A DNA stretch of 32,000 nucleotides from an uncultured Thermodesulfobacteriota bacterium (GCA_964525275.1 CAZGDM010000017.1:835-32834), one strand, 5' to 3'; numbered from the stretch's first letter, positions 1,163 to 19,311 are shown. Notes: a model not told the origin generated them from the letters alone. Translations and numbers: made by a program.

Positions 1163-1226
1163 ACTTTTATGGTTGCAAGGACTGGGAAACGGGCTATTAT
1201 TCCTCATACGAAAGGGGGTGACGAAG

Positions 1227-1514
1227 ATGGCGATCAAGGTGATCATTGAAAGGAGAATCAAGGAGGGGAAGGAGGGAGAGCTGGCCCAGCTGCTCAGGCA
1301 ACTCCGCGCCAAGGCCCTACTGGCAAGCGGATACATCTCCGGCCAGACCCTGCGCTCGGTGGATGACCCGCGACTCTATGTGGTGATAAGCACGTGGAAA
1401 AGCCTCGAGGACTGGCGGGAGTGGGAGAAGGATCCGGAAAGGGCGGAACTACAGCGGAAGATCGACGAACTATTGGAGGAACCTGCCAAATTTAGGGTCT
1501 TCTACTTCGTATGA
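1227..1514 (+). CDS. ABM (antibiotic biosynthesis monooxygenase / Dabb) domain protein, about 95 aa
   Basis: ORF 1173..1514. The internal ATG at 1227 follows an aaaggggg SD. MAIKVIIERRIKEG...LYVVISTWKSLEDWREWEKDPER fits the small ferredoxin-like ABM fold pattern. Confidence 0.7.
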   Translation: MAIKVIIERRIKEGKEGELAQLLRQLRAKALLASGYISGQTLRSVDDPRLYVVISTWKSLEDWREWEKDPERAELQRKIDELLEEPAKFRVFYFV

Positions 1515-2118
1515 CCTCTAGGACCTCCAACAGGTCTTCGATGTAATGGTCGGCTTCCAAATCCCTGTTTTTGTAGGCCACAAAAGGCACTCCAGCCCGC
1601 TGGGAGGCTTGGGAGTCGCGTTCTGTGTCCCCCACGAAGAGGGCCTCCCGCGGCGCACAGCCGAAATGCCCCAGTACCTTTAGCAAGGGTTCGGGGTGGG
1701 GTTTGGGATTGGATACATCCAAAGCCGAGACCACGAAGTCGAAATGGTCCTTCAACCCGAAATGCTCAAGTACGTGCCCTATGGTGTAAGTCCTGTTGGT
1801 GGAGATGGCCTTCCTAACTCCAGGAGGGACCCCTTCCAAGAGTTCCCGTAGGTGGGGCTCGGGCCTCATCAAGCGGATGAAGGGCAGGTAATCGAGCCCC
1901 TCCCTCACCTTCCTGTAGCGCTCCATGTCCCGGAACTCCCTGCGCTCAAGGAGATAACTCACCCCCTCCTCGGCGGTGCTTGAGTGGATGAACTCCACTT
2001 CCTCTTCGTCCATCGGAGGGAGGCCGAGTTCAGCGAGGATGTGGTTGTAGTAAGCGATGTTCGCTTCCTTGGAGTCGAACATCACCCCGTCGCAGTCGAG
2101 GATGAGCACCCTCACCAT
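1492..2118 (-). CDS. HAD-superfamily hydrolase (phosphatase, subfamily IA-like)
   Basis: Motif I is LILDCDGVMFDS (DxDG). A later KPHPEP motif and FVGDTERD motif IV are present. 208 aa. Its 3' end overlaps the convergent ABM gene by 23 nt. Confidence 0.85.
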   Translation of the reverse strand: MVRVLILDCDGVMFDSKEANIAYYNHILAELGLPPMDEEEVEFIHSSTAEEGVSYLLERREFRDMERYRKVREGLDYLPFIRLMRPEPHLRELLEGVPPGVRKAISTNRTYTIGHVLEHFGLKDHFDFVVSALDVSNPKPHPEPLLKVLGHFGCAPREALFVGDTERDSQASQRAGVPFVAYKNRDLEADHYIEDLLEVLEVIRSRRP

Positions 2119-2151
2119 CCCGGGGAGCTTTACCGTAAAAGGGGAAGAAGG

Positions 2152-3309
2152 TCAATGCCGATCTTGGGGGAGGGAACAGTTCTTGTCCTCGTACATCCTC
2201 TTGTCGGCCTTGTGAATGAGGTCGCGGACCGTTTGAGCATCTTTAGGATAAGAGGCCACCCCTCCGGAAAGGCAGATCTTCACCTCCTCGTCGTCAAAGG
2301 TGAAGCGGAGTTTGGAGACGGCCTCCTTTATCCTCCGGCAGGCCGCCTCAGCCCCTTCGACGTCAGTGTCGGGCATAAGTACAGTGAATTCATCCCCTCC
2401 GTAGCGACACAGCACATCCGACCCGCGGATCTCCTTGCTGATGGCGGCACTTACCGCCTTGAGCACCTTGTCCCCCGCGAGGTGACCGTAACGGTCGTTT
2501 ACCTCTTTAAACCTGTCGATATCGAACATGGCCACGGCGAAATCCCTACCCGTGCGTTTGGACCGACGGCGTTCCCGACCCAGCTGTTCGAAGAAGTAGC
2601 TCCTGTTGTAGATGCCGGTGAGGGGATCCTTTGTGGAGAGCTCCTTTATCTTCTGGAAGAGCATGATCTTCTCGAGCAAGATCCCGGCGTAATTGCACAC
2701 CATCTTCAGAGGGTAGAAATCGTCGGTCACCTTACCACCAGGGGGAGGGGTATCCGCGGTAACTATGCCGAAGGCGGGGAAGTGCTCACAAAAGATCCAC
2801 GAGAAGGATGCTGTATCCTTCAAGCGGAGTTTACGGCCGTTGCGTCCGTAAAGGGGACAACTCCTCTGCCTGCACTTCACAAGGTCGTAACAGGCCTTCC
2901 TGCCGATGCTGCAGATAGGGGCGATCACCACCTCTTCGGGCGGGGGACCCAACTGTTGATAGTAGGTGAAAAAGGGCGTATCGGAGGGCTTCACCACCAG
3001 GGCCCCCAGCTCCTTCAAGGCGTTGACGGCGGGATCATAGGTCTCCTCCAAGGGGATCTCTAACCTCCCGAAGTCCTCCAAGGGATAGCCGTAGCCATAC
3101 AGGGCCTCCAAACGCCTCCTCTCCTTGTCCAGGAACCAGAGCCCTATCCTCCGGTAGTCAAGCCCCCGATGGAGTGAATCGACCATGGTCCGCAGGATGC
3201 CCTCCAGGGTCTCCTCGGCGGAGATCTCCCTGAGGATCATCTGGACCTCGTTGTACTGGAGCACCAGTATCTTGAGGTCCTCTAATAGCTGCTCATCACA
3301 CCTTGCCAC
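2152..3309 (-). CDS. Diguanylate cyclase: GAF-like N-terminal sensor with a Cys-rich insert plus a C-terminal GGDEF domain
   Basis: Has DPLTGIYNR, FDIDRFKEVNDRYGHLAGD and the RYGGDEF active site. An RGSD (RxxD) I-site lies exactly 5 residues upstream of GGDEF. Overlaps the upstream kinase gene by 14 nt. Confidence 0.9.
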   Translation of the reverse strand: MARCDEQLLEDLKILVLQYNEVQMILREISAEETLEGILRTMVDSLHRGLDYRRIGLWFLDKERRRLEALYGYGYPLEDFGRLEIPLEETYDPAVNALKELGALVVKPSDTPFFTYYQQLGPPPEEVVIAPICSIGRKACYDLVKCRQRSCPLYGRNGRKLRLKDTASFSWIFCEHFPAFGIVTADTPPPGGKVTDDFYPLKMVCNYAGILLEKIMLFQKIKELSTKDPLTGIYNRSYFFEQLGRERRRSKRTGRDFAVAMFDIDRFKEVNDRYGHLAGDKVLKAVSAAISKEIRGSDVLCRYGGDEFTVLMPDTDVEGAEAACRRIKEAVSKLRFTFDDEEVKICLSGGVASYPKDAQTVRDLIHKADKRMYEDKNCSLPQDRH

Positions 3310-3733
3310 CCTGGCCTCCGCGATACTTGCGTAGCTTCAGGTAATTTTTGCCCCCTTCACGGCGGTATTCAATCTCGTCCATGGCCTCCCGCATGATGTG
3401 CACCCCCATCCCCCCTTCGGGCAGAGAACCGGAATCGGTGTGGTCGAAGGCGGGAGGGGGGACCTGACGCGGGTCGAACTCCTCTCCTTCGTCTATGAGC
3501 GTAACCTGACAGAATTCATCCGCCACTTCTAACTCCGCCTCTATCTTCCTTGAGGAATTGAAGCAATAAGCGTGCCTTACGATATTGCTCAAACCCTCGA
3601 AAACGGCTATCTCCACGGCCCTTAAGGTCTCTTCCTCCACCCCAAGCCCTTCACAGACGCCCTTTATGGCCAAGGCACAGAGGCGGACATCCTCCATCGA
3701 GGCGGACATGACCATCTTCAGTCGATACCTCAC
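3296..3733 (-). CDS. RsbW/SpoIIAB-type anti-sigma-factor serine kinase (HATPase_c family)
   Basis: 145 aa. N-box is EGLSNIVRHAY; G-boxes are DEGEEFD and GGMGVHIM. 4-nt start/stop overlap with the STAS gene. Confidence 0.85.
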   Translation of the reverse strand: MRYRLKMVMSASMEDVRLCALAIKGVCEGLGVEEETLRAVEIAVFEGLSNIVRHAYCFNSSRKIEAELEVADEFCQVTLIDEGEEFDPRQVPPPAFDHTDSGSLPEGGMGVHIMREAMDEIEYRREGGKNYLKLRKYRGGQGGKV

Positions 3734-4071
3734 TTGCCGATGACCTCCAGGGCTCCCTCCACGTCCTCTGCTATGTCGAAGATTCGGTGCAGCCTCGTCA
3801 GTTCCATCAGGTCGTCAACGGCTTTCTGCAGGGAACATAGCACCAATCGCCCCCCTCTGGCCACGTGTTTCAACACCGAGACCAGAGCCCCCAGTCCGGA
3901 GCTGTCGACGAAGCTCACCTCCCTCATATCGATGATGGCCTGCTTCGTCCCCGCTTCGTCCAGGGACTGGATCACCTTGTCTTTGAACTCAGAGGCCACC
4001 AAGGCATCGAGCCTCTTGTCAAGGGGCCTGAAGATCAGTACATCGCCCTTCCTCTCGATCTCAACCCTCAT
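3730..4071 (-). CDS. STAS-domain anti-sigma-factor antagonist (SpoIIAA/RsbV-like)
   Basis: FVDSSGLGALV contains the conserved phosphorylatable Ser (DSSG). The ORF track extends to a GTG at 4140. I prefer ATG 4071 (MRVEIERKGDVLIFRPL, 113 aa), which is typical STAS length and leaves a divergent promoter gap. Confidence 0.8.
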   Translation of the reverse strand: MRVEIERKGDVLIFRPLDKRLDALVASEFKDKVIQSLDEAGTKQAIIDMREVSFVDSSGLGALVSVLKHVARGGRLVLCSLQKAVDDLMELTRLHRIFDIAEDVEGALEVIGK

Positions 4072-4168
4072 AGCCTTGTAGACCTTCTCTTTAGTTCTCT
4101 TTTCGGCACCACCGCCCATCCCTTTAGCGTTTCCCACCACCCTCAGGCTGTGTTAAAAGTAAGGGAGG

Positions 4169-4780
4169 ATGCTGGGTGAGGTAACGAACTGGCTGGTGAA
4201 GACCATTGGAAATCTCGGCTACGGGGGAATCGTGGCCTTGATGTTCCTCGAGTCTTCCTTCTTCCCCTTCCCCAGCGAGGTTGTCATCCCACCGGCGGGC
4301 TATTTGGCCTCAAAGGGGGAGATGGATCTGCTGACCATCATAGGCTCGGGCACCCTCGGCAGCCTTCTGGGGGCCCTCTTCAACTACTGGCTCGCTGCGC
4401 GAATGGGAAGGCCTTTACTTGAGCGTTACGGCCGCTACCTCTTCATAAAAGGGGATGTATTGGCCAAGGCCGATCGCTTCTTCCAGCGGCACGGCCACAT
4501 CAGCACCTTCCTGGGAAGGCTGCTCCCCGGGATAAGACAGTACATATCCCTGCCCGCAGGTCTGGCCGAGATGGATGTAGGCCTGTTCTGCTTCACCACC
4601 TCCCTCGGAGCGGGCCTTTGGGTAACCGTGCTGGCCCTGGTGGGTTACTGGGTGGGAGAACAGGAAGTCCTGCTTAAAAGGCACCTCCGGATCGCTACGG
4701 CAGCAGTGGCTGTCTTTGCGGCCTTGATCTGCCTGGCCTACATCCTCCGCTTAAAGGGCAGGTTTACTTCCCGCAGCTAA
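4169..4780 (+). CDS. DedA-family (VTT/SNARE-associated) inner-membrane protein
   Basis: [30 protein letters not shown] and [17 protein letters not shown] are DedA signature stretches. Multi-TM. Strong agggagg SD before the ATG. Confidence 0.9.
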
Positions 4781-4789
4781 AGGGGTATC

Positions 4790-6394
4790 ATGAAATCCTT
4801 CACAAAGCGGGATGTGATGAAGCTCCTTTTGGTCCTCCTCACAGGAGGTCTTTTGTTTTTCTCCAACCTCGGCGGCTGGGATCTCTGGAACCCAGACGAA
4901 CCCCGCTACGCCGAGATAGCACGGGAGATGATCCAGGGGGGGACTTGGGTCATCCCTCACCTCAACGGGGAGGTCTACTTCGACAAACCGCCCCTCTTTT
5001 TTGCCATGATCGCCGGAGCTGCCAAGGCCTTGGGGGAGGTCAACTCATGGTCCGCCCGGCTACCGTCGGCGATCTTCGGAACCTTGGGGCTCATCGTCCT
5101 TTACGCCTTGGGCAAAGCCCTGCGCGACGGGACAACGGGATTGCTCGCCGCCCTAATGACGGCTACCACCGTCGAATACCTCTGGCTCGCCCGTCGTGCT
5201 AACATTGACGCCACCCTCACCTTCTTCACCACCGGGGCCGTATTCTTCTTCTGGACTGGGGCCAAGAGCGAAAAGGGAAAGGTCTTTCTGTATCTAATGG
5301 GCTATATCTTCATGGCGGTGGGATTCCTCACGAAACTGCAGCCTGCGGTGTTGATCCCCGTCCTTGCCCTCGGTCCCTACTTCATCCTGAAGGGGCGTTG
5401 GAGTTTTTTCGTAGATAAAAAGCACATCCCGGGCCTACTGGTCTTTGCGGGCATCGTAGGGGGATGGCTCCTGCTGGCCCTGAAGGAAGGTGGGCCGGAA
5501 TACCTCAAAGGCCTCCTATGGGAGAAGACGGCCTCCACCTTTTTTAAAGTGACCACGACTGGACATAAGCGTCCTTTTTTTTATTACTTTTACAACTTCC
5601 CCGCCCAATTCTCCCCTTGGAGCTTTTTTCTGCCCTCTGCTATCATCTACGCCCTAAGGACCCACAAGGAGGAGTTGGTCTTCCCATTGAGTTGGTTTGC
5701 GGCTGGTTTCCTCTTTTTCTCCCTGGCTCAGGCGAAAAGGGGACTTTATCTCCTGCCCCTCTATCCAGCTGCTGCCCTTCTGGTGGCCGGGCTGTGGAGG
5801 GATGAAGATTTGAGGAAGGGCCTTTTGAGGACCCCCCTGCTGGTCCTTGCGGCCGTGTTGGTCTTTACAGGAATGGCCGTGCCCTTTCCAGTAATGCTAT
5901 GGGGCAGAAAGTATCTGCAGCACGCCTTGGAGATAGGGGTCGTCACCGGGGTCATATTGACCTCAGGGGGGATAGTCCTCTGGCTATCGGTGAAGAAGAT
6001 CCAGAGGCCTTCTCTGGCCCTCGTCCTGGTGGTGAGCCTCACCTCAATCCTATGGCTTTACGGGGTATGGAGGATCTTTCCGGAGGTCAACCCCTACAAA
6101 TCGGCCCGTCCTTTGAGCGAAAGGGTCCTGGAGGTCATGGCCCCCGAGGACAGCTTGGCGGTGTACAAACTCCAGGGGGCCGAATTCAACTTCTACACTG
6201 GCCGTATCCCCATCCTGAGGATTTACCGCCCTGAGGATCTCAAGGCCTACCTCGACAGGCCAGGGAGGGCCTTCTGCATCCTCAGGGAAAAGCACTTGCG
6301 GAAACTCAGCCAGGAGTTGACCTCAAAGGTCCACGTGGTGACAAGGGGCCGCGTTGGCCATAAGAAACTGGTGGTAATAAGCAACAGGGGGTAG
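4790..6394 (+). CDS. ArnT-like GT-C glycosyltransferase (family 39 / PMT_2), polyprenyl-phosphate-sugar dependent
   Basis: 534 aa polytopic protein. First-loop motif is NPDEPRYAEIAREM, followed by YFDKPPLFF. Both are hallmarks of ArnT/PMT_2 enzymes. Confidence 0.9.
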   Translation: MKSFTKRDVMKLLLVLLTGGLLFFSNLGGWDLWNPDEPRYAEIAREMIQGGTWVIPHLNGEVYFDKPPLFFAMIAGAAKALGEVNSWSARLPSAIFGTLGLIVLYALGKALRDGTTGLLAALMTATTVEYLWLARRANIDATLTFFTTGAVFFFWTGAKSEKGKVFLYLMGYIFMAVGFLTKLQPAVLIPVLALGPYFILKGRWSFFVDKKHIPGLLVFAGIVGGWLLLALKEGGPEYLKGLLWEKTASTFFKVTTTGHKRPFFYYFYNFPAQFSPWSFFLPSAIIYALRTHKEELVFPLSWFAAGFLFFSLAQAKRGLYLLPLYPAAALLVAGLWRDEDLRKGLLRTPLLVLAAVLVFTGMAVPFPVMLWGRKYLQHALEIGVVTGVILTSGGIVLWLSVKKIQRPSLALVLVVSLTSILWLYGVWRIFPEVNPYKSARPLSERVLEVMAPEDSLAVYKLQGAEFNFYTGRIPILRIYRPEDLKAYLDRPGRAFCILREKHLRKLSQELTSKVHVVTRGRVGHKKLVVISNRG

Positions 6395-6397
6395 AGG

Positions 6398-7507
6398 ATG
6401 GAGATACCACTTCTCGATTTGAAAAGGGTGAGCATGAGGATAAGGGAGGAGGTCTTCGCCGAATGGGAGCGAGTGCTGGAAGGGATGAGGCTCCTCGGGG
6501 GCTCGAACCTTAAGGCCTTTGAGGAGGAGATCGCCTCCTATATCGGCTGCCGTTACGCCTTCGGTGTGGCTTCGGGTAGCGACGCGTTGCTGCTGGGCCT
6601 GGTGGCCACAGGGGTGGGACCAGGGGATGAGGTGATAATCCACGCCAACGGCTTCGTGGCCGCCGTGGAGGCCATAAAATGGGTCGGGGCACGGCCGGTG
6701 CTGGTGGACATGAAGGAGGAGGACTTCGGCCCCGATCCCGAACAAATTGCCGAAGCCATTACCCCGAGGACCAAGGCGGTGATAGTGGTCCACATGTACG
6801 GCCATCCTGCGGACATGGAACCGCTGCTGGAGCTCAAGAACAAGTACGGTTTCAAACTCATCGAGGACTGCTCCCATGCCCACGGGGCCGAATACAAGGG
6901 CAAGAAGGTCGGCACCTTTGGCGACGTGGGCTGTTTCAGCTGTGGGGTGGTGAAGAACCTCGGGGCCTTCGGCGATGCCGGCTTCTGCACTACCGACGAC
7001 CCAGAGGTGGCCTCGAGGATAGACCTCCTCAGGGTCCACGGACAAAGGGTGAAGAACCAGCACGTGTTTTACGGCTTCAACAGCCGCTTGGACGAACTCC
7101 AAGCGGTGGTGCTGAGGATCAGGCTCAAGACCCTGGACGAGGAGAACGACCGCAGGCGCGAAATCGCCAAGCGCTACACCGAGGCCTTTTCCTCCATTGA
7201 TGGGATAATCCCCCCTCCTGAGTTCATCGACCGAAAGAGCGTCTATCACCGCTATGTGGTCCGCACCCCGCGGAGGGAGGAGCTCATGGAGTTCCTCAAA
7301 GGCGAGGGAATAGGAGTGGGGATCCAATATCCCCTGCCCCTCCACCTGCAGGAGGCCTGGCAACGGGAGGGGTATGGAAGCTACCGACTGCCGGTGTCGG
7401 AACGGGTGTGCTCCGAAGTCCTCTCCTTGCCCATCTATCCCGAACTCACCGAGGAGGAAGTGGCTTATGTCATAGAAAAGGTCCAGGAGTTCTTTCGCCG
7501 GGGATGA
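6398..7507 (+). CDS. DegT/DnrJ/EryC1/StrS-family PLP-dependent sugar aminotransferase (ArnB-like fold)
   Basis: Has GVASGSDALLLGL, IEDCSHAHGA and the PLP-lysine context SCGVVKNLGAFGDAG. 369 aa. Confidence 0.9.
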   Translation: MEIPLLDLKRVSMRIREEVFAEWERVLEGMRLLGGSNLKAFEEEIASYIGCRYAFGVASGSDALLLGLVATGVGPGDEVIIHANGFVAAVEAIKWVGARPVLVDMKEEDFGPDPEQIAEAITPRTKAVIVVHMYGHPADMEPLLELKNKYGFKLIEDCSHAHGAEYKGKKVGTFGDVGCFSCGVVKNLGAFGDAGFCTTDDPEVASRIDLLRVHGQRVKNQHVFYGFNSRLDELQAVVLRIRLKTLDEENDRRREIAKRYTEAFSSIDGIIPPPEFIDRKSVYHRYVVRTPRREELMEFLKGEGIGVGIQYPLPLHLQEAWQREGYGSYRLPVSERVCSEVLSLPIYPELTEEEVAYVIEKVQEFFRRG

Positions 7508-8418
7508 AGCCTGAGGTATCCATTGCCATACCCGTACATAACGAGGAGGGCAACATCGAAGGCCTCTGGAGGGAAATAAGGGATGTGATGGACCCCCTGG
7601 GGATCCCCTATGAGGTAGTGTTGGTGAACGACGGCAGCACCGACCGGACAGGGGAGATCCTCGAGGGGATCCTGCGCGAGGACCCGAGGGTCAGAGTGGT
7701 GGAACTCGACGGCAACTTTGGCGAAGCGGCGGCCCTGTCCGCCGGGTACCGCTTTTCGCGGGGGAAATGGATCATCACCATGGATGGCGATGGTCAGAAC
7801 GACCCGCGGGATATCCCCCGCATACTGCGGGAACTCAAAAAGGGCTATCGGGCGGTGAGCGGCTTCAGGAAGGACCGGCAAGAGGCCTTCCTGAGCAGGG
7901 TGTTGCCCTCCCGGGTGGCCAACTGGCTGATCGCTGCCGTCACCGGCTGCAAGATCCACGACACCGGCTGCGGCCTCAAAGGTTACCGGGCGGATCTCGT
8001 CCGTGGATTCAACATCCCCCATGGATTCCACAGGTTTTTACCGGCGCTGTTCGGCGTGAAGGGGGAGGAGGTGACCGAGGTAGTGGTGATGGATAGGAAG
8101 CGCCAGGCGGGCCGCTCCCACTACGGCCTTGGCCGGACCTTTGAGGTCCTGAGGGAGCTTCTCACCATCAAGTTCGTGCTCTCGGATCCGGAGGGATGGC
8201 GGCGAAGGTTCAGGAAGATAGTCCCCTTTTCGGCCACGATAGCCGCGGGGGGGATGGCCCTGGCCCTCTTGGCCCCTGGGACATGGAGCTTGGGGTTATT
8301 CGTAGGGGCCGTGGCCATGACTGCCTTGGCCCGGATAGTCCAGCGGAACCTCCAGAGGTTCATCGAGGCCCAAAGGCGGGGTGTATATAAGGTCAAGGAG
8401 GTAAAAGGTGGCGATTAG
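7504..8418 (+). CDS. GT2 polyprenyl-phosphate glycosyltransferase (ArnC / Dpm1-like) with C-terminal TM helices
   Basis: The ORF track starts at 7408. I place the start at ATG 7504, which forms an ATGA overlap with the DegT stop. Motifs: MKPEVSIAIPVHNEEGNI, VNDGSTD, TMDGDGQNDP (DxD), and a C-terminal hydrophobic pair as in ArnC. Confidence 0.85.
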   Translation: MKPEVSIAIPVHNEEGNIEGLWREIRDVMDPLGIPYEVVLVNDGSTDRTGEILEGILREDPRVRVVELDGNFGEAAALSAGYRFSRGKWIITMDGDGQNDPRDIPRILRELKKGYRAVSGFRKDRQEAFLSRVLPSRVANWLIAAVTGCKIHDTGCGLKGYRADLVRGFNIPHGFHRFLPALFGVKGEEVTEVVVMDRKRQAGRSHYGLGRTFEVLRELLTIKFVLSDPEGWRRRFRKIVPFSATIAAGGMALALLAPGTWSLGLFVGAVAMTALARIVQRNLQRFIEAQRRGVYKVKEVKGGD

Positions 8419-9430
8419 GGTCGGTGTCCTCGGCGGTGGTTATTGGGGAAAGAATGTCATAAGGAACCTCAGAAGGATGGAGGACGTCGAAGTCGTCCTC
8501 CTTTGCGATCCTTACGAAGGGGCGAGACGGGAGGCCCTGGAGCTCTTCCCCGGGATAGAGGTAACCTCAGATCCAGAGGTCCTCTTCGGGGATCCGCGGG
8601 TGGACGCCGTAGCGGTGATCACCCCTCCATCCCTTCACGCATCCCCGGCGAAGAGGGCCCTGGAGGCGGGAAAACACGTCTTCGTGGAAAAGCCCATGGC
8701 CATGAGTTACGAAGAGGGTCGCGAGCTGGTGGAGCTCGCCCGAAGGGATGGCAGGGTCCTCTTCGTCGACGAGACCTTCCTCTATGACCCAGCCCTTCAC
8801 GTGGTGAAGGACCTGTTGGACGGCGGTGCCATCGGGAGGGTCCACCACGTGCTCTTGGAGCGCTTGGGGATGGGGAGGATCCGATGTGAATCCAACGTCT
8901 GGTGGAACTCGGCCCCCCACGACCTGTCCATCCTCCGCTTCCTCATCCCTCGGCCGGTGAGGTCCATATCCGTAAGGGGCCACTCCTTCCTCGAGGGAAG
9001 GCTCGAGGACGTGGCCTTCGGGACCTTGGAGCTTGAGGGAGGGGTCTCCGCGTGGGTTCATCTGAGCTGGTGCCATCCCATAAGTACGGCGAGCCTGGTG
9101 GCAGTGGGAGATCGGGGGGCCGTCTTTTACGAGGGGAGGTTCAAAAAGCGAAAGGTGGTCCTCTACCGTTACGAGATCGGGGAACGCCCCAAGGAGTTGG
9201 TATGGGGGGTTCCCTCGCCCAACTTCATCCCCGCACGGTGCCTTCAGGAAAGGGAGTACACCGACTTCGGCCCCACGGAACCCCTTTACGCCTCCCTTGA
9301 GGCCTTCATCCAGGCCATAAGGGACGGCAGGGATGCCCCCTCCCTTGGCAAATACTCCCTCGAGACCTTGAAGGTACTCGATGCCGGTGATCGCTCCATG
9401 AGGGAAGGAGGCGCAAAGATCGACCTGTGA
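8408..9430 (+). CDS. Gfo/Idh/MocA-family NAD(P)-dependent sugar oxidoreductase
   Basis: GTG start 7 nt after an aaggagg SD. N-terminal Rossmann IRVGVLGGGYWGKNVIRNL. EKPMA motif in VFVEKPMAMS. Confidence 0.85.
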   Translation: MAIRVGVLGGGYWGKNVIRNLRRMEDVEVVLLCDPYEGARREALELFPGIEVTSDPEVLFGDPRVDAVAVITPPSLHASPAKRALEAGKHVFVEKPMAMSYEEGRELVELARRDGRVLFVDETFLYDPALHVVKDLLDGGAIGRVHHVLLERLGMGRIRCESNVWWNSAPHDLSILRFLIPRPVRSISVRGHSFLEGRLEDVAFGTLELEGGVSAWVHLSWCHPISTASLVAVGDRGAVFYEGRFKKRKVVLYRYEIGERPKELVWGVPSPNFIPARCLQEREYTDFGPTEPLYASLEAFIQAIRDGRDAPSLGKYSLETLKVLDAGDRSMREGGAKIDL

Positions 9431-10368
9431 GCGGCCGCAGGGGATTGAAGATAGGCCTCAAGGCCGCGGTGAGCGGGGCGATCTTCGTCTATCTGCTCAC
9501 CAAGGCCCCCGTTGGGAAGCTCGGCTCCCTGATCTTGCAAGCTGACCACAGCTTCTGGCTCGCTGCCTTCCTGCTGTATCTGGCAGGACAGTTGCTGTCC
9601 GCCTACAAATGGGGGCTTTTGGCCGAACCCCTCGGATTGAAGAGGCCCTACCGGCAACTGGTCGCCTTCTACTTCATAGGGATGTATTTCAACCTCTTTA
9701 TGGTGGGCTCCATGGGGGGCGACTTGATGAGGGTGTGGCTACTGGCAGGCAGGGAGGACAGCCGGATGCGGTCGGCCTACTCCATCTTCGCCGAGCGTTT
9801 CACCGGTGGGATGGCCTTGATCACCATAGCAGCCCTGGCCTCCCTGTCCTCCTTCAGCTATCTCCTGCCCCGGGGGTTGAAGATAGGGGTGATCCTCGGC
9901 TCCTTAGGGGTGTGGGCCTTCGTGGCGGTCTTGCCCCGCATCGTCGAGGCCTTCCCCCGTCTGCAGAGACTGGCGGCTCGTTTCAAACTCGGGGACTTCA
10001 CCCTCTACTGGTCCCGACCAGGGCGGATGGCCGTGGTGCTCGCCCTATCCTTCCTCTTTCAGGCGATGAACATCTTGGTGGTGGCCCTCCTGGGTAAGGC
10101 CGTGGGACTGGGGGTGCCCCTTTCGGCCTATTTCTTCGTGGTCCCGGTGGTGGACCTGGTAAGCGTGCTGCCGGTGAGCATAAGTGGCCTCGGAGTGAGG
10201 GAGGGTTCCTATGTCTTCCTCCTGCACCTCCTCGGGGCGGAGACCACGACGGCCTTTGCCTGTAGCCTTCTGGTGTTGTCCGTGGTGGTGTTGTCAGGGG
10301 CAATAGGGGGAGTGGTCTACTTGCTCACCGATTACCCCATGGTCATACGGAGAAAGAGGACTCCATGA
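9427..10368 (+). CDS. UPF0104 / lysyl-PG-synthase-TM (MprF flippase-domain-like) membrane protein
   Basis: 313 aa, polytopic. GSMGGDLMRVWLL resembles the conserved GGDxxR motif of the flippase-like family. GTGA overlap upstream and ATGA overlap downstream. Confidence 0.75.
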   Translation: MSGRRGLKIGLKAAVSGAIFVYLLTKAPVGKLGSLILQADHSFWLAAFLLYLAGQLLSAYKWGLLAEPLGLKRPYRQLVAFYFIGMYFNLFMVGSMGGDLMRVWLLAGREDSRMRSAYSIFAERFTGGMALITIAALASLSSFSYLLPRGLKIGVILGSLGVWAFVAVLPRIVEAFPRLQRLAARFKLGDFTLYWSRPGRMAVVLALSFLFQAMNILVVALLGKAVGLGVPLSAYFFVVPVVDLVSVLPVSISGLGVREGSYVFLLHLLGAETTTAFACSLLVLSVVVLSGAIGGVVYLLTDYPMVIRRKRTP

Positions 10369-12002
10369 GAGCGATCCTCGGGGTGGCCCTTCTGGCTTCC
10401 TTCCTCTTCCTCTTTCGGCTGGGTTCCACAGGTATCATCTACCCCTCCAACGAACCCCGGAGGATGCTCCTGGCCAAGGACATGGTCAATGAACACCACT
10501 GGGTAGTCCCCCACCTTTTGGGGAAGCCCTATATCCACAAACCCCCTATGCTTATCTGGCTCCTGGCCTCCAGTTACCGCATTACTGGACGGACTGATCT
10601 CTGGAGCACTCGGGTACCGACGGCGTTAATGGGGATATTGGGGGTGGTGGTAACGGCGCTCTTCGGCCGCGCGCTCTTCGGAAGGGAGGTGGGCATCGCT
10701 TCAGGGTTGATCCTGGCCACCTCTCCCCTCTGGATCGAGCGGGCTCGGCTGGCAGAGGAGGATGTGGTCCTCGCCCTGTGGGTAGTCCTCGCCCTTTACG
10801 CCTTCTGGCTCGGTTGGAAGGAGGGAAAGGGAAAACTCTACCTGGCCTTCTACCTTTTCATGGCCTGTGGTTGTATGACAAAGCTCGCCTCGGGCCTGAT
10901 CTTCCCCGGCTTGGCAGTGACGGCCTTCCTCCTGGGGAGGAGGGACCTGCGGGCCTTCCTCAGGATGAAACCCCTCTGGGGCCTCCTGATCCTCTGTGGT
11001 TTGGTCCTCCCTTGGTACCTTTACGCCTATCACCTGGTGGGATTCGGCCGTGCAGAGGGGATACTGTTGGAGGACACCTGGTACAAGGTCTTTCCCACTC
11101 ATGGGGGGAAACCTCCCTATCACTATCTCCTCTCCACCTTTCCCTATTTCCTTCCCTGGAGCCTTTTTCTGCCCGCGGCTGCCGTATTCTTCTGGCAGGA
11201 GCGCAAGAAGCTGGACGATAGGGGATGGTTTTTGCTGGCCTGGATCGTACCCAATCTCTTATTCTTCTCCCTCGCCGGAGCGAAGAGGGACGAGTACATC
11301 CTTCCCCTTTACCCCGCCCTGGCCATCTCGGTGGCCTTCTTATGGCGGGAGTTCCTCCAGGGAAGGGGTTCTCCCCTCTTCAAAAGGGTCTTCGCCTTGG
11401 GCTGCAAGGCCTTCACTGCCCTGGTGATCCTCGGCGCCATAGGCCTCCTCTCTTCAGGGCTTTTTCTCCGTAGCCTTCCTTTGGTCCGTGGCCCCGGAGG
11501 GCTCAAGCCCCTGTTGCTGGGAGGGGGGCTAATGCTATGCGGCCTCTGGGCATTTCTCGGGATGAGGAGGGGGAATTACAGGTCCCTCTTCCCCTCCTTG
11601 GTCACCGTTGGCGTACTCCTCTTCTTGGTCCACAACCTCTACATCACCCCTGCATTCCTGTGGTACAAGACCCCCCACCCCTTCTGTGACCGGGCCAAGG
11701 AGGTGCTGCAGGGGAGGGTCCCCTATCTCTTCAGGGGAGGAGGGCTTTACCTCCAGAACGAATGGGACGGGAGGCTCCAGGACATAAGCCTCGCTGAACT
11801 GAAAGAACGCCTCATGAGGGGAGAGCAGATCTACCTCCTCACAGAGAAGAGGGGCATTGAAACCCTGAAGCGGGAGGGCATCCCCTTTCAGCTCCTCCTC
11901 CAACAGAAGCCCTTCCTCAAGAGGAGGTGGGACATCGCCCTGGTGCAGGTGAAGGGTTATAATAACAACGAGGAGTCCGAAGATGGATCGAAAACTGATT
12001 GA
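10365..12002 (+). CDS. Second ArnT-like GT-C glycosyltransferase (family 39 / PMT_2), divergent paralogue
   Basis: 545 aa polytopic protein. Has YIHKPPMLIW and GAKRDEYILPLYPA (compare QAKRGLYLLPLYPA in the first copy). The first-loop motif is SNEPRRMLLAKDM rather than DEPRYAE. Confidence 0.85.
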   Translation: MRAILGVALLASFLFLFRLGSTGIIYPSNEPRRMLLAKDMVNEHHWVVPHLLGKPYIHKPPMLIWLLASSYRITGRTDLWSTRVPTALMGILGVVVTALFGRALFGREVGIASGLILATSPLWIERARLAEEDVVLALWVVLALYAFWLGWKEGKGKLYLAFYLFMACGCMTKLASGLIFPGLAVTAFLLGRRDLRAFLRMKPLWGLLILCGLVLPWYLYAYHLVGFGRAEGILLEDTWYKVFPTHGGKPPYHYLLSTFPYFLPWSLFLPAAAVFFWQERKKLDDRGWFLLAWIVPNLLFFSLAGAKRDEYILPLYPALAISVAFLWREFLQGRGSPLFKRVFALGCKAFTALVILGAIGLLSSGLFLRSLPLVRGPGGLKPLLLGGGLMLCGLWAFLGMRRGNYRSLFPSLVTVGVLLFLVHNLYITPAFLWYKTPHPFCDRAKEVLQGRVPYLFRGGGLYLQNEWDGRLQDISLAELKERLMRGEQIYLLTEKRGIETLKREGIPFQLLLQQKPFLKRRWDIALVQVKGYNNNEESEDGSKTD

Positions 12003-12744
12003 GCGTGCCGCACGGGACATCCTCCGGTCGAAGAGGGCGGTGGCCTTCACCGGGGCTGGTATATCTGTGGAGAGCGGCATCCCGGACTTTCGGAGCCCTG
12101 GGGGGCTGTGGAGTCGCTTCGACCCCATGGAGTACGCCCACATAGAGTCCTTCAGACGCAATCCGGAGAAGGTCTGGGAGATGTTGAAGGAGATGCTCTC
12201 CCTGACCCTGGGGGCCAAGCCCAATCCGGCCCACCGCGCCTTGGCGGAGCTGGAGGAGATGGGACTCCTCAGGGCCGTCATCACCCAGAACGTGGATGGG
12301 CTCCATCAGCGGGCCGGAAGCCGCGAGGTCATCGAGTACCACGGCACCCAGGACTGGCTGGTATGTCTCTCATGCGGCTGGAGGAGGCGTTCAGAGGGCC
12401 TGGACCTGCACCATCTCCCGCCACGGTGTGAGCATTGCGGGGCCATCCTCAAACCCGATGTGGTCTTTTTCGGCGAGCCCATCCCATGGCAGGCCCAGGT
12501 CAAGGCCGCAGAGGAGGCCCGTCAGTGCGACCTCATGCTGGTGGTGGGCACCTCGGCGGTGGTCTTCCCCGCGGGGGAGCTCCCCAGAATAGCCAAGGAC
12601 AGGGGGGCGGTGATAATAGAGATCAACAAGGAACCCACCGTGCTCACAGGGGCCGTCTCCGACTACCTCATCCAGGGGGAGGCGGGGAAGGTCCTTCCGA
12701 AGATCGTCGAGGAGGTAAAGCGGCTGAGAGATGCGAACCGCTGA
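11983..12744 (+). CDS. cobB: NAD-dependent protein deacylase, Sir2 family
   Basis: Has FTGAGISVESGIPDFRSPGGLW, QNVDGLHQRAG, catalytic His in IEYHGT, and the Zn site CLSC...CEHC. Overlaps the GT39 gene by 20 nt. Confidence 0.9.
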   Translation: MDRKLIERAARDILRSKRAVAFTGAGISVESGIPDFRSPGGLWSRFDPMEYAHIESFRRNPEKVWEMLKEMLSLTLGAKPNPAHRALAELEEMGLLRAVITQNVDGLHQRAGSREVIEYHGTQDWLVCLSCGWRRRSEGLDLHHLPPRCEHCGAILKPDVVFFGEPIPWQAQVKAAEEARQCDLMLVVGTSAVVFPAGELPRIAKDRGAVIIEINKEPTVLTGAVSDYLIQGEAGKVLPKIVEEVKRLRDANR

Positions 12745-13711
12745 GGTCACCAGCTTGCGATTCCCTGACCTCGAGAAGGCCCGGACCCTCTTCGGTCCGG
12801 GCAACGAACACCTCCGCATCCTCGAAAGACACCTCGAGGTGAAGATCCACACCAAAGGCGATCAGGTGGTCATCGAGGGGGAGGAGGGGGACCGCAACCT
12901 CGCCCGCAAGGCCCTGGAGGGCCTTTACGGCCTCGTCTCCAAGGGATACCCCCTTTACAGCACCGACGTGGAGTACGCCTTGAGGATCATCTCGGGAAAT
13001 GGCGCGGCCAAGCTCGAAGAGGTGTTCCTGGACACGGTCTTCGTATCCGCCAGAAAGAAGGTGATCACCCCCAAGACCGTGACCCAGAAGGAGTACATCG
13101 ACGCCATCAGACGCCATCCCATCGTGGTCGGCATAGGACCCGCGGGCACCGGAAAGACCTACTTGGCCATGGCCATGGCCCTGAACTTCCTCACCAAAAA
13201 GGAGGTCAAGAGGATCATCCTGGCACGGCCGGCCGTGGAGGCCGGGGAGAAACTGGGCTTCCTGCCTGGGGATCTTTACGAAAAGGTCAACCCCTACTTG
13301 AGGCCCCTATACGACGCCCTTTACGACATGCTGGATTACGATCAGGCCTCTCGCCTCATCGAACGGGGGGTGATAGAAGTGGCCCCCCTTGCCTTCATGA
13401 GGGGAAGGACCCTAACCGATGCCTTCGTGATCCTGGATGAGGCCCAGAACACCAAACCCGAACAGATGAAGATGTTCCTCACACGCATGGGTTTCGGGTC
13501 CAAAGTGGTCATCACCGGGGATATCACCCAGGTGGACCTCCCGGAGGGGAAGACCTCGGGGCTCGTTCAGATCCAGCATATCCTCAAAGGCATCCGCGGG
13601 ATCAAGTTCATCTACTTCAGCGAACGCGACGTAATCCGCCACCCCATAGTCCAAGACATCATAAAGGCCTACGAGCGGGCAGAAAGGGGAGAGGACCCTT
13701 CTAAGGATTGA
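12731..13711 (+). CDS. phoH: PhoH-like ATPase (YbeZ family)
   Basis: Walker A GPAGTGKTYLAMAMAL, ILDEAQN, ITGDITQVDLP. 326 aa. Confidence 0.9.
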   Translation: MRTAEVTSLRFPDLEKARTLFGPGNEHLRILERHLEVKIHTKGDQVVIEGEEGDRNLARKALEGLYGLVSKGYPLYSTDVEYALRIISGNGAAKLEEVFLDTVFVSARKKVITPKTVTQKEYIDAIRRHPIVVGIGPAGTGKTYLAMAMALNFLTKKEVKRIILARPAVEAGEKLGFLPGDLYEKVNPYLRPLYDALYDMLDYDQASRLIERGVIEVAPLAFMRGRTLTDAFVILDEAQNTKPEQMKMFLTRMGFGSKVVITGDITQVDLPEGKTSGLVQIQHILKGIRGIKFIYFSERDVIRHPIVQDIIKAYERAERGEDPSKD

Positions 13712-13718
13712 GGATGGG

Positions 13719-14135
13719 GTGACGATCACCGACAGACAGCGTCTGCAGCGCGTCGACCCCCACTGGGTGGCGGAGGTGGCGGAGAAGGTTCTGCGATACC
13801 TCGGCCTTCAAGACAGGGAACTCAGCATCTTGCTCGTCTCAGACGATGAGATCACCGAGCTCAACCGCCGCTGGCTCCAAAGGGACCGCCCTACCAACGT
13901 CATCGCCTTCCCCATGGATGGCCCTCAGGACTTCGTCCTCGGCGACGTGGTGATATCCACCGAGACCGCAGAGCGGGAGGCCGCTGAAAGGGGGGTAGGG
14001 TTGGAGGAACACCTTGCCCTTTTGCTGGTGCACGGGATCCTGCACCTGCTGGGCTACGATCACGAAAGGGGTGGGGAAGAAGAGCTTGCCATGAGGGCCA
14101 AGGAAGAGGAGTTGCTCCAAGCGATCTTGCGTTAA
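13719..14135 (+). CDS. ybeY: rRNA maturation endoribonuclease YbeY
   Basis: HGILHLLGYDHE zinc-binding motif. 138 aa, GTG start. Canonical phoH-ybeY adjacency. Confidence 0.9.
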   Translation: MTITDRQRLQRVDPHWVAEVAEKVLRYLGLQDRELSILLVSDDEITELNRRWLQRDRPTNVIAFPMDGPQDFVLGDVVISTETAEREAAERGVGLEEHLALLLVHGILHLLGYDHERGGEEELAMRAKEEELLQAILR

Positions 14136-14167
14136 ACCTTTGCCTATCTCCCTCGTCTAAAGAGAGG

Positions 14168-14656
14168 ATGGACGGAACGGAATTCCTGCGGTTGGTACGT
14201 CGAGCCCAGGCCCCTTTGCTCTCCTTCCTCATGCGTCTGGGCCACGATCGGGAGGAAGCTGAAGAGATCCTGCAGGGGGCCTTGCTCCGGGCGTGGGAGG
14301 GACGAAATGGCTTCAGGGGGCGCTCTCAGTTTAAAACCTGGCTCTTCAAGATCGCCCTCAACCTCTCGAGGGATCGCCACAGGGAGAGGGAACGGCTCAG
14401 GGAGATGCCCGAGGACCTCACCTCTTCCCACGACCCGTTGGGAGAGGTCATCGCCCGGGAGGAGAGGGAAAGGCTGCTACAGGCCTTACAGGGACTACCG
14501 GAAAGGCAGAGGATGGCACTCTTGTTAAAGGTCTATGGCGAGATGAAGTACACGGAGGTAGCGGAGGTGATGGGGTGTTCGGTGGGGGCAGCCAAGGCCC
14601 ATTTCCACCACGCCCTCTACAAACTCAAGGAGGCCCTCAGGGAAGATGAAGTGTGA
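14168..14656 (+). CDS. ECF-subfamily RNA polymerase sigma-70 factor
   Basis: Region 2 is FKTWLFKIALNLSRDRHR. Region 4 is LPERQRMALLLKVYGEMKYTEVAEVMGCSVGAAKAHFHHA. 162 aa. Confidence 0.9.
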   Translation: MDGTEFLRLVRRAQAPLLSFLMRLGHDREEAEEILQGALLRAWEGRNGFRGRSQFKTWLFKIALNLSRDRHRERERLREMPEDLTSSHDPLGEVIAREERERLLQALQGLPERQRMALLLKVYGEMKYTEVAEVMGCSVGAAKAHFHHALYKLKEALREDEV

Positions 14657-18554: not shown

Positions 18555-18734
18555 CCCCCTCCTCTTACACCTGTCATCTTGCTCTTCCTCAGCGAGGGAT
18601 TTCATATGCTATCACACCCATTATCACATCCAGAACAGTTCGGCCGGAAGCCTATGCAAGTTTGAAGCGTCGAATGGAGCTTTGCTTAACGTCGCTTAAG
18701 CTGGTGAACTGGTGGAGGACTTTCTGAGGTGTGA

Positions 18735-19310: not shown

Positions 19311-19311
19311 C

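Follow-up and report, generated by a model that had tools for sequence, protein, structure and literature searches.

Does a run of envelope genes from an uncultured, sulfate-reducer-type Thermodesulfobacteriota bacterium follow the logic of the Arn polymyxin-resistance pathway without several Arn genes, and, if so, which amino sugar would it make and to what would that sugar be attached? The sequence-only reading had placed seven co-directional genes at positions 4169–12002 of the window (the whole 32-kb stretch of DNA analysed). ORFs match these bounds exactly, and the genes called on an identical metagenome contig agree with them:

4169..4780, + strand: DedA/VTT-domain membrane protein (Pfam VTT_dom, 67 bits versus a gathering cut-off of 33.9)
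4790..6394, + strand: GT-C#1 (PMT_2/PMT), predicted ArnT-like polyprenyl-phosphate-sugar-dependent periplasmic glycosyltransferase (Pfam PMT_2 and PMT)
6398..7507, + strand: DegT-family PLP sugar aminotransferase, C3-aminotransferase-like (Pfam DegT, 374 bits)
7504..8418, + strand: GT2 polyprenyl-phosphate glycosyltransferase of the ArnC/GtrB/DPMS class (Pfam Glycos_transf_2, PF00535, 107 bits)
8408..9430, + strand: Gfo/Idh/MocA NAD-dependent oxidoreductase (Gfo), candidate sugar 3-dehydrogenase (Pfam GFO_IDH_MocA and C-terminal domains)
9427..10368, + strand: UPF0104/LPG_synthase_TM membrane protein, candidate flippase for a lipid-linked sugar (Pfam PF03706, 119.7 bits versus a gathering score of 33.4)
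10365..12002, + strand: GT-C#2, second divergent ArnT-like glycosyltransferase (Pfam PMT_2, PMT and Glyco_transf_22)

All seven Pfam assignments score well over their gathering cut-offs. Neighbouring genes abut or overlap (gaps of +9 nt to –20 nt), and with such spacing the seven are probably translationally coupled. The DegT stop and the GT2 start overlap as ATGA; the true GT2 start is ATG 7504 rather than GTG 7408, which gives the 304 aa called on the identical contig. A strong ribosome-binding site, AAGGGAGG, lies ahead of the DedA ATG at 4169.

Arn-like proteins in a window without Arn genes

The claim that ArnA, ArnD and ArnE/F are missing holds for the whole 32-kb window. Searching its six frames by phmmer with the Arn proteins of a related locus gave zero matches at E ≤ 1e–3. 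No Formyl_trans or Epimerase homologue, as expected of ArnA (UDP-GlcA C4-oxidative decarboxylase plus N-formyltransferase), was found in any frame of the window, and none of its six frames holds a Polysacc_deac_1 homologue that could stand for the ArnD deformylase. The intergenic gaps of the cluster are too small to hold ArnE/F-like small membrane genes, and domain and homology searches found no lpx genes in the window. Orthology of any cluster gene to an Arn gene was rejected, all NCBIfam Arn equivalog scores being far under cut-off: 212 bits versus 631 for DegT on the ArnB model (190–212 bits across the related DegTs scored), 130 versus 529 for GT2 on ArnC, and 158 and 110 versus 567 for GT-C#1 and GT-C#2 on ArnT. 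For comparison, the true Arn genes of a related locus, L090, score 356 and 239 bits on the ArnC and ArnT models.

The Arn-like logic itself stands at the level of protein class. The best solved relatives of GT2 are ArnC (120 bits, three species), GtrB sll0501 (91 bits) and DPMS (60 bits), all above soluble GT2s; a DxD motif lies in ...MDGDGQND..., and a C-terminal TM hairpin spans residues 239–279. Judged by these sequence features, GT2 belongs to the ArnC/GtrB/DPMS class of polyprenyl-phosphate glycosyltransferases. ArnT of C. metallidurans (5ezm) is the sole PDB sequence match of GT-C#1 and likewise of GT-C#2, the two being 30% identical to each other. GT-C#1 retains the ArnT-type motifs PDEPRY, (Y/F)DKPP and NID (the D158 equivalent), and GT-C#2 the loop-1 Glu (SNEPRR), HKPP and EED. 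With PMT_2 scores of 75 and 74 bits and at least 10 TM segments, both are predicted PMT_2/ArnT-like enzymes (GT83/GT39 superfamily), a group of polytopic proteins marked by an acidic residue in the first periplasmic loop, by KPP and by another catalytic Asp (ArnT D158).

The UPF0104 protein scores 45.1 bits on the TIGR00374 'flippase-like domain' model (cut-off 43.2) and has at least seven TM segments; sequence searching returned no solved relative. These features are those of the LPG_synthase_TM family (MprF flippase domain, HpnL), which makes the protein a candidate flippase. DedA reaches 120 bits on the NCBIfam UptA equivalog versus a cut-off of 250, an assignment at family level only, and is a candidate undecaprenyl-phosphate recycler.

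A conserved core of DegT, GT2 and Gfo with a GT-C

Conservation extends across about 80 related loci, and all carriers found are uncultured MAGs (Thermodesulfobacteriota, Binatia, Methylomirabilota and others). The triad order DegT-GT2-Gfo is kept in 57/70 loci by a strict rule and in about 65/70 after discounting ORF-start artefacts, and of the 47 well-covered loci, 44 have one or more GT-Cs in the neighbourhood. Other genomes carry natural fusions of DegT to GT2 (~680 aa, some 30 protein clusters) and of Gfo to a GT-C (969 aa), which together connect the four activities as one pathway. Conservation and fusions place the cluster beyond a chance grouping, and synteny and fusions define the core as DegT-GT2-Gfo plus a GT-C. 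The sequence-only reading had counted DedA, UPF0104 and a second GT-C as part of the system; these occur in only 6, 18 and 34 of the 47 loci, respectively, and are lineage-specific accessories. The GT-C complement varies from one to three per locus, with at least eight paralogue groups. All 12 members of the GT-C#1 orthologue group adjoin the triad. GT-C#2 has a single orthologue (L004 4590–6236) among the 129 GT-Cs of related loci, and the closest relatives hold different paralogue groups in this second slot, which is thus evolutionarily labile. The two acceptor positions that the sequence-only reading predicted for the two ArnT paralogues are no more than a possibility.

The module also meets true Arn genes. 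In Binatia-type loci it is attached to a split Arn operon of the canonical kind, and it is joined to canonical Arn genes in three independent architectures (L090 type, L021 and L045). About 11 Binatia-type loci contain ArnC, formyltransferase, ArnA-dehydrogenase, ArnD and ArnT in an operon that lacks arnB, and the triad DegT is the sole aminotransferase there. Five fusion-type loci include a deacetylase-like gene, YdjC, which among the relatives is restricted to the Methylomirabilota type.

Which sugar is aminated, and at what stage

The earlier suggestion of a 3-amino sugar fits the DegT comparisons. The best solved relatives of DegT are 7b0d (48% identity), 7n63, QdtB and DesV (41–44%), WlaRG, WbpE and NtdA; one set of solved C3-type enzymes scored lower. 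Solved C3 enzymes score 240–358 bits (WbpE 241) versus 165–179 bits for solved ArnB. DegT thus groups with the C3-specific clade of DegT/DnrJ/EryC1 sugar aminotransferases, and C3 regiochemistry is predicted. The Schiff-base Lys lies in ...SCGVVKNLG, and 76 of 77 triad DegTs carry the signature S[LCA]G[VP]VK instead of SFYPxK. The same proportion (76/77) has Gly at the position of QdtB Tyr183, which we take to be a nucleotide-sugar-contacting residue. The substrate may therefore differ in kind from that of QdtB.

The Binatia-type operons without arnB make action at C4 possible. DegT would then be an ArnB-like C4 aminotransferase fed by Gfo with a UDP-4-keto pentose or hexose, and the product would be Ara4N or another 4-amino sugar reached by an ArnA-independent route. 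The top NCBIfam matches of DegT are indeed the C4 enzymes PseC and ArnB, in a library without a competing C3 aminotransferase model. However, the solved C3 enzymes outscore ArnB, the ArnB equivalog scores of the triad DegTs stay far from the cut-off, and arnB may lie elsewhere in the Binatia-type MAGs. Moreover, the Gfo/Idh/MocA sugar enzymes of known site act, to our knowledge, at C3, C1 or inositol C2, never at C4 of nucleotide sugars. We consider a C4 product improbable.

Gfo retains the invariant motifs EKP, FVDxTFLYD and SNVWWNSAPHD. Its AF2 model (pLDDT 93.8) has the generic Gfo fold, and Foldseek places it at TM ~0.8 from AFR, GenD2, KanD2, WlbA, GnnA and glucuronide 3-dehydrogenase alike, with DgpA as another structural neighbour. 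Sequence identity to WlbA, GnnA, GenD2 and KanD2 is likewise even (~20–24%). A profile search of the PDB gave a flat field as well, with 99 bits for WlbA (3q2k, full-length alignment) and 83 bits for GnnA (7bvj, 21% identity); neither this search nor Foldseek revealed orthologue-level similarity to GnnA or WlbA/WbpB. The top NCBIfam match is an archaeal UDP-GlcNAc 3-dehydrogenase (113 bits, under cut-off). The next relatives of Gfo are fused to DegT, Hexapep N-acetyltransferase or formyltransferase domains and sit in polysaccharide and flagellar-glycosylation loci, the pattern expected of soluble nucleotide-sugar keto/amination enzymes. Gfo and DegT are both soluble by TM prediction, and Gfo is a candidate sugar 3-dehydrogenase giving a keto substrate to DegT. 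As for the pairing of the two that had been noticed from the sequence, the DegT fusions of close Gfo relatives bear out a functional coupling, but the genes are not adjacent here, GT2 being in between.

Could Gfo and DegT simply be the housekeeping GnnA/GnnB pair, making UDP-GlcNAc3N for the lipid A backbone beside unrelated GT2 and GT-C genes? They come from the same enzyme families, and some DegT family members bear the automated JGI name 'UDP-N-acetyl-3-dehydro-alpha-D-glucosamine 3-aminotransferase'. Against this stand GT2 between DegT and Gfo across loci, GnnA as one of many equidistant relatives of Gfo, and a window without lpx genes. The sequence-only reading had itself raised this pair as the case that would overturn it; the fusions to a membrane GT2 and to a GT-C, found in several lineages among other genomes, count it out, and we regard it as highly improbable.

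A different order of reactions has to be weighed more seriously. GT2 might act first, making Und-P-Glc(NAc) from a common UDP-sugar, and Gfo and DegT would then oxidise and aminate C3 of the lipid-linked sugar at the membrane surface; flipping and transfer by a GT-C would follow. The fusions tether both soluble enzymes to membrane enzymes, the window lacks N-acyl protection and deprotection enzymes, and the nucleotide-sugar-contacting Tyr of QdtB is lost in nearly all triad DegTs. Among the structural neighbours of Gfo, KanD2 (solved with 3''-deamino-3''-hydroxykanamycin A), GenD2, glucuronide 3-dehydrogenase and DgpA oxidise C3 of glycosidically attached sugars. However, DegT is 41–48% identical to nucleotide-sugar aminotransferases, the nearest Gfo relatives belong to classical nucleotide-sugar loci with soluble acyltransferase or DegT partners, and we know of no DegT enzyme that acts on a polyprenyl-linked sugar. 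Amination on the lipid is, on balance, unlikely; if it did take place, this would be the first DegT/Gfo pair to act on a polyprenyl-phosphate sugar.

A proposed route to the envelope and its known relatives

Given the family memberships, conserved synteny and fusions observed here, we suggest, with a probability of about 0.5, that the operon encodes periplasmic envelope glycosylation of the Arn or 'three-component' type with its own amino-sugar supply, for which we infer the sugar, the reaction order and the acceptor. Gfo would use NAD+ to oxidise C3 of a UDP-hexose, most likely UDP-GlcNAc, with UDP-Glc or UDP-GlcNAcA as alternatives; UDP-GlcNAc is hinted at by the top NCBIfam match of Gfo and by YdjC in five loci. 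DegT would transaminate the 3-keto sugar to a UDP-3-amino-3-deoxy sugar, and the ArnC-like GT2 would load this onto undecaprenyl phosphate at the cytoplasmic face. The overlap of the DegT and GT2 genes and their fusion elsewhere suggest that transamination would come early, so that Arn-style N-formylation and deformylation would be unneeded. UPF0104 would flip the lipid-linked sugar to the periplasmic face, GT-C#1 and GT-C#2 would pass it on to acceptors in the envelope, of which lipid A or LPS is the most probable, and DedA would return the released undecaprenyl phosphate. A free amine on the transferred sugar would bring positive charge.

The junctions with canonical Arn genes in three architectures suggest the link to lipid A, and ArnT similarity and neighbourhood make lipid A or LPS the probable acceptor. 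The same pathway might instead decorate peptidoglycan, a protein of the periplasm or outer membrane (PMT-like O-glycosylation), or some other glycan, for example capsule or a side branch of the O-antigen. The GT-Cs fit Pfam PMT and PMT_2 while scoring far under the ArnT equivalog cut-off, and they vary in number and type between loci. Systems of GT2, flippase and GT-C modify many kinds of acceptor (PMC11127046, PMC8035078). On the other side, ArnT is the only solved relative of the GT-Cs by sequence, GT-C#1 keeps ArnT-type motifs, and the module has repeatedly been joined to canonical Arn operons. We give another acceptor a real but minor chance.

All characterised Und-P-aminosugar pathways that we know of (Ara4N, GlcN, GalN) transfer the sugar to the lipid in N-acylated form and remove the acyl group there, and we know of no precedent for direct loading of a free-amine UDP-sugar. 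Only tentatively do we propose that DegT-GT2-Gfo with a GT-C constitutes an undescribed pathway, widespread in uncultured Thermodesulfobacteriota, Binatia and Methylomirabilota, that puts a free 3-amino sugar onto lipid A/LPS without an N-acyl cycle, either through direct loading of an unprotected UDP-aminosugar by a coupled or fused DegT-GT2 or through amination on the lipid-linked sugar. Bacteria become resistant to polymyxin and antimicrobial peptides mainly by adding cationic sugars to lipid A. If true, the proposal would add a fourth, biosynthetically distinct chemistry to Ara4N, GlcN and GalN (C3 oxidation by Gfo and transamination at C3, without a formyl or acetyl cycle) and extend the known ways of modifying envelope charge. 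It would also give a function to a conserved gene module of large uncultured soil and sediment lineages and a candidate cellular role, polyprenyl-P-sugar flippase, to the UPF0104 protein, and the natural DegT–GT2 and Gfo–GT-C fusions would be new enzyme parts for glyco-engineering.

The Arn system (PmrHFIJKLM; ArnA, ArnB, ArnC, ArnD, ArnE/F, ArnT) shares with the proposed route the conversion of a nucleotide sugar into a keto sugar, transamination by a DegT-family enzyme, GT2 transfer onto Und-P, flipping and a periplasmic GT-C. ArnC and ArnT are the nearest solved relatives of the cluster GT2 and GT-Cs, and the module adjoins true Arn operons in Binatia-type loci. The keto sugar, however, is made by the ArnA SDR decarboxylase there and would be made by a Gfo/Idh/MocA enzyme here; ArnB is replaced by a C3-clade DegT, formyltransferase and deformylase have no counterpart, and UPF0104 takes the place of ArnE/F. 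One to three non-orthologous GT-Cs and the DegT–GT2 and Gfo–GT-C fusions further set this cluster and its relatives apart. GnnA/GnnB (UDP-GlcNAc to UDP-GlcNAc3N) and WbpB/WbpE, equivalent to WlbA/WlbC (UDP-GlcNAcA), likewise modify a UDP-sugar through a Gfo/Idh/MocA dehydrogenase and a DegT aminotransferase acting at C3. Their products enter soluble cytoplasmic pathways (LpxA, O-antigen), whereas here the pair brackets or fuses with a polyprenyl-phosphate GT2 and GT-Cs, and Gfo shares only about 21–24% identity with GnnA and WlbA. In Bordetella LgmABCD (GlcN) and Francisella FlmF2/NaxD/FlmK (GalN), an ArnC-like GT2 and an ArnT-like GT-C put a cationic hexosamine on lipid A phosphates via Und-P; a common UDP-HexNAc is loaded and then deacetylated on the lipid, with no need for an oxidoreductase or aminotransferase. 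A deacetylase-like gene, YdjC, is found here only in Methylomirabilota-type relatives. KanD2/KanS2 and GenD2/GenS2 (aminoglycoside 3''-amination) and RifL/RifK (UDP-kanosamine) share Gfo/Idh/MocA oxidation at C3 followed by transamination to a 3-amino sugar, but they belong to secondary metabolism, without lipid carrier or GT-C, and KanD2 and GenD2 use an already attached sugar. The generic three-component systems of extracytoplasmic glycosylation (GtrA/GtrB/GtrC, CsbB/GtcA/YfhO, pentofuranose; PMC11127046, PMC8035078) also combine a polyprenyl-P GT2 with a flippase and a GT-C but use ready-made nucleotide sugars and GtrA-type flippases; the present cluster adds an oxidation/amination pair, UPF0104 (MprF/HpnL family) and DedA. 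Overall, we suggest that the cluster encodes a so far undescribed pathway, related to the Arn pathway of polymyxin resistance, that probably reaches its amino sugar by a different chemical route.

Gene content of the operon and its surroundings

The segment 4169-12002 carries seven plus-strand open reading frames with spacing of +9 nt to -20 nt, assigned by Pfam/NCBIfam as follows:

4169-4780, +, DedA: VTT domain
4790-6394, +, GT-C#1: PMT_2 and PMT
6398-7507, +, DegT aminotransferase: DegT, 374 bits
7504-8418, +, GT2: Glycos_transf_2
8408-9430, +, Gfo (Gfo/Idh/MocA oxidoreductase): GFO_IDH_MocA and C-terminal domains
9427-10368, +, UPF0104 membrane protein: LPG_synthase_TM
10365-12002, +, GT-C#2: PMT_2

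An exact-sequence look-up of DegT retrieved an identical metagenome contig of 3.2 kb with the same gene calls, which place the GT2 start at ATG 7504, overlapping the DegT stop; the same look-up for Gfo returned no record. A 99% identical protein (P0001) places the source among uncultured 'Deltaproteobacteria' (Thermodesulfobacteriota) MAGs. The gene content and coordinates of the sequence-only reading agree with the reading frames and with these gene calls, but the oxidoreductase and aminotransferase, which it grouped as a pair, are separated by GT2. The topology seen in a hydropathy scan is the expected one, with soluble DegT and Gfo, a C-terminal transmembrane hairpin on GT2, and at least 10 and at least 7 transmembrane segments in the GT-Cs and UPF0104, respectively. 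No frame of the 32-kb window yielded a homologue of either ArnA half, of ArnD or of the other accessory genes of relatives, and Rfam and tRNA scans of the whole window gave no matches. Promoter and terminator counts across 3600-15800 match those expected from shuffling and therefore define no operon boundaries; the 49-nt gap 5' of DedA holds a ribosome-binding site only. The surroundings are as follows:

486-1124: 212-aa open reading frame without a Pfam family, in a 63% GC stretch
2152-4140, -: GGDEF diguanylate cyclase, RsbW-like HATPase_c_2 anti-sigma kinase and STAS antagonist, divergent from DedA
11983-14135: Sir2/CobB deacylase, PhoH and YbeY, directly after GT-C#2
14168-15619: ECF sigma factor, zf-HC2 anti-sigma factor and Metal_resist (Spy/ZraP/CpxP-like) periplasmic protein, directly 3' of ybeY
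16470-31036: anaerobic aromatic (phenol-type) degradation set

If STAS starts at ATG 4119, about 49 nt lie between the STAS and DedA start codons. Downstream, Sir2/CobB (which shares its first 20 nt with the end of GT-C#2), PhoH, YbeY and then the ECF sigma/anti-sigma pair continue the operon gap-free. The closest relatives retain this Sir2/PhoH/YbeY linkage, and the block is inverted in loci L004, L017 and L018. A functional tie to these genes was set aside, given the inversion in L004-type loci and the absence of the block beyond close relatives; the adjacency is probably lineage synteny and not shared function. The ECF sigma set could regulate the glycosylation operon in response to envelope stress. 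In the related locus L002 a sigma factor gene also lies 3' of ybeY, followed by two short open reading frames (164 and 147 aa) without a recorded Pfam match. The remainder of the window encodes an aromatic degradation set of the phenylphosphate-synthase/carboxylase type. It comprises a 711-aa protein resembling ADP-forming acyl-CoA synthetases, UbiX, a neighbouring pair of UPF0261 paralogues, an AMP-ligase, a (de)carboxylase of the UbiD family and, similar to phenylphosphate synthase, PPDK_N plus PEP-utilizers; next come a sigma54 PAS activator and an FAD subunit like that of 4-hydroxybenzoyl-CoA reductase.

Conservation, fusions and neighbours of the DegT-GT2-Gfo triad

We scanned a Gfo profile (A1) against one genome per GTDB species and kept the best 80 of 136 confirmed loci. 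These 80 all come from MAGs, with no cultured carrier, and belong to Thermodesulfobacteriota/'Deltaproteobacteria' and Binatia, with a few in Verrucomicrobiia, Methylomirabilota, Limnocylindria and FCPU426. Searching the window proteins against six-frame reading frames of the related loci, we found DegT and GT2 directly upstream of Gfo in 57/70 loci under a strict rule. The 13 exceptions are mostly artefacts of over-long ORF starts; the order truly differs in L045, L055, L069 and L087. Gene content was counted in those 47 loci whose sequence extends at least 6 kb in both directions. At least one GT-C is present in 44/47, at least two in 34/47 and at least three in 6/47; UPF0104 occurs in 18/47, DedA in 6/47, canonical Arn genes in 10-11 of 47, AsnB-like genes in 7/47, and YdjC and PEMT-like genes in 5/47 each. 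The conserved core is therefore DegT-GT2-Gfo with a GT-C, to which the window's lineage has added DedA, UPF0104 and the second GT-C as accessories. The logic of the cluster described in the sequence-only reading largely holds, but these three genes, which it had counted in, fall outside the core.

Natural fusions join the members of this core. DegT~GT2 is a single protein of ~680 aa in L006/L024, L035, L036, L040, L051, L086 and L088, and the same Pfam-checked architecture forms ~30 protein clusters (90% identity, 667-686 aa) in a collection of 5.8 billion proteins, every source being a MAG or metagenome. A 969-aa Gfo~GT-C fusion is found in L067, with a truncated copy in L022. Two soluble enzymes (DegT, Gfo) are in this way linked to two membrane enzymes (GT2, GT-C). 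The two kinds of fusion exclude the alternative, raised beforehand as a possible refutation, that Gfo and DegT serve as housekeeping GnnA/GnnB and have no functional relation to their neighbours. Two further candidates of 777 aa (P0162, P0169) were rejected as new fusions, since each consists of two DegTs in tandem, a type of ~777-aa protein that occurs among the aminotransferase relatives.

In Binatia-type loci (L090, L044, L050, L058-60, L063, L065, L074-76, L079, L080) the module closes a split Arn operon on its 3' side, in the order ArnC, formyltransferase, UDP-4-keto-pentose synthase, ArnD, ArnT (Arnt_C domain), GT-C, DegT, GT2, Gfo. In L090, where the whole spans 560-10978, NCBIfam scores confirm the first five as Arn genes (ArnC, 356 bits; formyltransferase, 404 bits, above the 316 cut-off; UDP-4-keto-pentose synthase, 171 bits; ArnD, 220 bits; ArnT, 239 bits). 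Arn-type genes are joined to the module in other arrangements in L021 and L045. By association with this neighbourhood, LPS/lipid A is suggested as the acceptor. No arnB was found within the Binatia-type Arn operons, where the triad DegT (190 bits on the ArnB model) is the only aminotransferase; either this enzyme is promiscuous or shared, or an arnB is located at another site in the genome.

Other neighbours vary. An AsnB-like glutamine amidotransferase gene (Asn_synthase) is interleaved with the GT-Cs in several loci (L006, 11078-12979; L089, 10487-12421), and its product may further modify the sugar or acceptor by amidation. In Methylomirabilota-type loci (L088, 1802-13681; L036, L040, L055, L086) the module carries the DegT~GT2 fusion and has a PEMT-like methyltransferase gene and a YdjC deacetylase-like gene on its flanks. 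L088 also has a phosphonate (AEP)-type set before the module: split phosphonopyruvate decarboxylase, Aminotran_5 and nucleotidyltransferase. Such neighbours suggest a larger envelope head-group modification island.

Relationships of the individual enzymes

Among solved structures, the window DegT scores highest against 7b0d (358 bits, 48% identity), followed by 7n63 (307 bits), QdtB (306) and DesV (303), these three at 41-44% identity, and by WlaRG (266), WbpE (242), NtdA (200) and ArnB (165-179). Those matches above ArnB that have a known function are all C3 aminotransferases. The triad DegTs (n=77) form a coherent family with a median identity of 52% to the window protein. They share a private signature, S[LCA]G[VP]VK in place of SFYPxK, just before the Schiff-base Lys, and have HGQ in place of YGS. 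The Tyr replaced in them is QdtB Tyr183, which reportedly contacts the dTDP-sugar.

Gfo has no close solved relative in sequence and profile searches of the PDB, which gave a flat field of matches: 3c1a, WlbA 3q2k (full-length alignment), GenD2 6nor, KanD2 6jw6 and GnnA 7bvj. Its AF2 model (pLDDT 93.8) does not assign a substrate class, because in Foldseek every Gfo/Idh/MocA structure in the PDB scores TM ~0.8. When 1.84 billion representative proteins were searched exhaustively with HMMER, 3,998 of them matched at E<=1e-30. Of the 150 representatives listed, ~8-9 have the triad signature (FVD[EH]TFLY, SNVWWN..PHD), and the triad Gfo is therefore a small, distinct clade. Natural fusions are among the next relatives (270-330 bits): four proteins are Gfo~Hexapep N-acetyltransferase and two are Gfo~formyltransferase, alongside DegT~Gfo, Gfo~DegT and GT28~Gfo. 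Of two fusion proteins looked up, one adjoins a Bac_transf polysaccharide locus and the other lies in a flagellar glycosylation region. Such fusions and contexts typify soluble pathways in which nucleotide sugars are oxidised, aminated and N-acylated (WbpB/E/D type), and they link the Gfo lineage directly to DegT partners.

The best solved relatives of GT2 are ArnC from three species (~120 bits), GtrB sll0501 (91) and archaeal DPMS (60), all of them polyprenyl-phosphate glycosyltransferases. C. metallidurans ArnT is the sole solved sequence relative of both GT-Cs. We compared 131 GT-Cs (129 from related loci and the two window genes), which fall into at least eight paralogue groups; three residues are retained in nearly all of them, namely the Glu of loop 1, the Lys of KPP and the Asp equivalent to D158. 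GT-C#1 falls in a 12-member group with ArnT-like motifs. GT-C#2, 30% identical to it, has one orthologue in the comparison (L004), and its slot in the closest relatives (L002 type) is filled by a different paralogue group. Inactivity of GT-C#2 through loss of the ArnT D55 equivalent was considered and rejected: several large paralogue groups have x-E there, the Glu being the conserved residue. On NCBIfam models the window proteins score far below cut-off (ArnC, 130 versus 529 bits; ArnT, 158 and 110 versus 567; ArnB, 212 versus 631), and none of them is an Arn orthologue. PDB sequence searches with UPF0104 and DedA gave no match at E<=1.

Predicted pathway and comparison with known systems

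The best-supported model on these comparisons has six steps. Gfo would oxidise C3 of a UDP-hexose, DegT would aminate the 3-keto sugar, GT2 would put the amino sugar on Und-P, UPF0104 would flip the lipid-linked sugar, the GT-Cs would transfer it in the periplasm and DedA would recycle Und-P. Weak hints point to UDP-GlcNAc as the Gfo substrate: the top NCBIfam match of Gfo (archaeal UDP-GlcNAc 3-dehydrogenase, 113 bits, under cut-off), the YdjC deacetylase-like genes in fusion-type loci and some automated GnnB-type names among homologues. The logic of the sequence-only reading is largely supported; its chemistry and acceptor remain predictions.

The general kind is already known: Arn-like or 'three-component' systems of polyprenyl-P GT2, flippase and GT-C (PMC11127046, PMC8035078). 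Gfo/DegT 3-amination pairs are likewise a known kind. We found no description of the conserved DegT-GT2-Gfo triad, its fusions, the missing acyl cycle or the UPF0104 partner in the searchable literature. To our knowledge, all three characterised Und-P-aminosugar routes (Ara4N, GlcN, GalN) load an N-acylated sugar and deacylate it on the lipid, whereas neither an acyltransferase nor a deacylase was found in the 32-kb window. A free-amine UDP-sugar might be loaded directly, with DegT-GT2 coupling or fusion plausibly taking over from formylation in pulling an unfavourable transamination forward. Alternatively, the amine might be introduced after loading on Und-P; KanD2 and GenD2, both structural neighbours of Gfo, are precedents for the oxidation and amination of a sugar that is already attached. 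The membrane tethering of both soluble enzymes in fusions and the altered DegT pocket speak for this lipid-stage order, but we consider it unlikely, and the nucleotide-stage order is favoured because DegT shares high identity with nucleotide-sugar enzymes and because the nearest relatives of Gfo occur in nucleotide-sugar contexts. Compared with the characterised routes, direct loading of a free amine and amination after loading would each be new.
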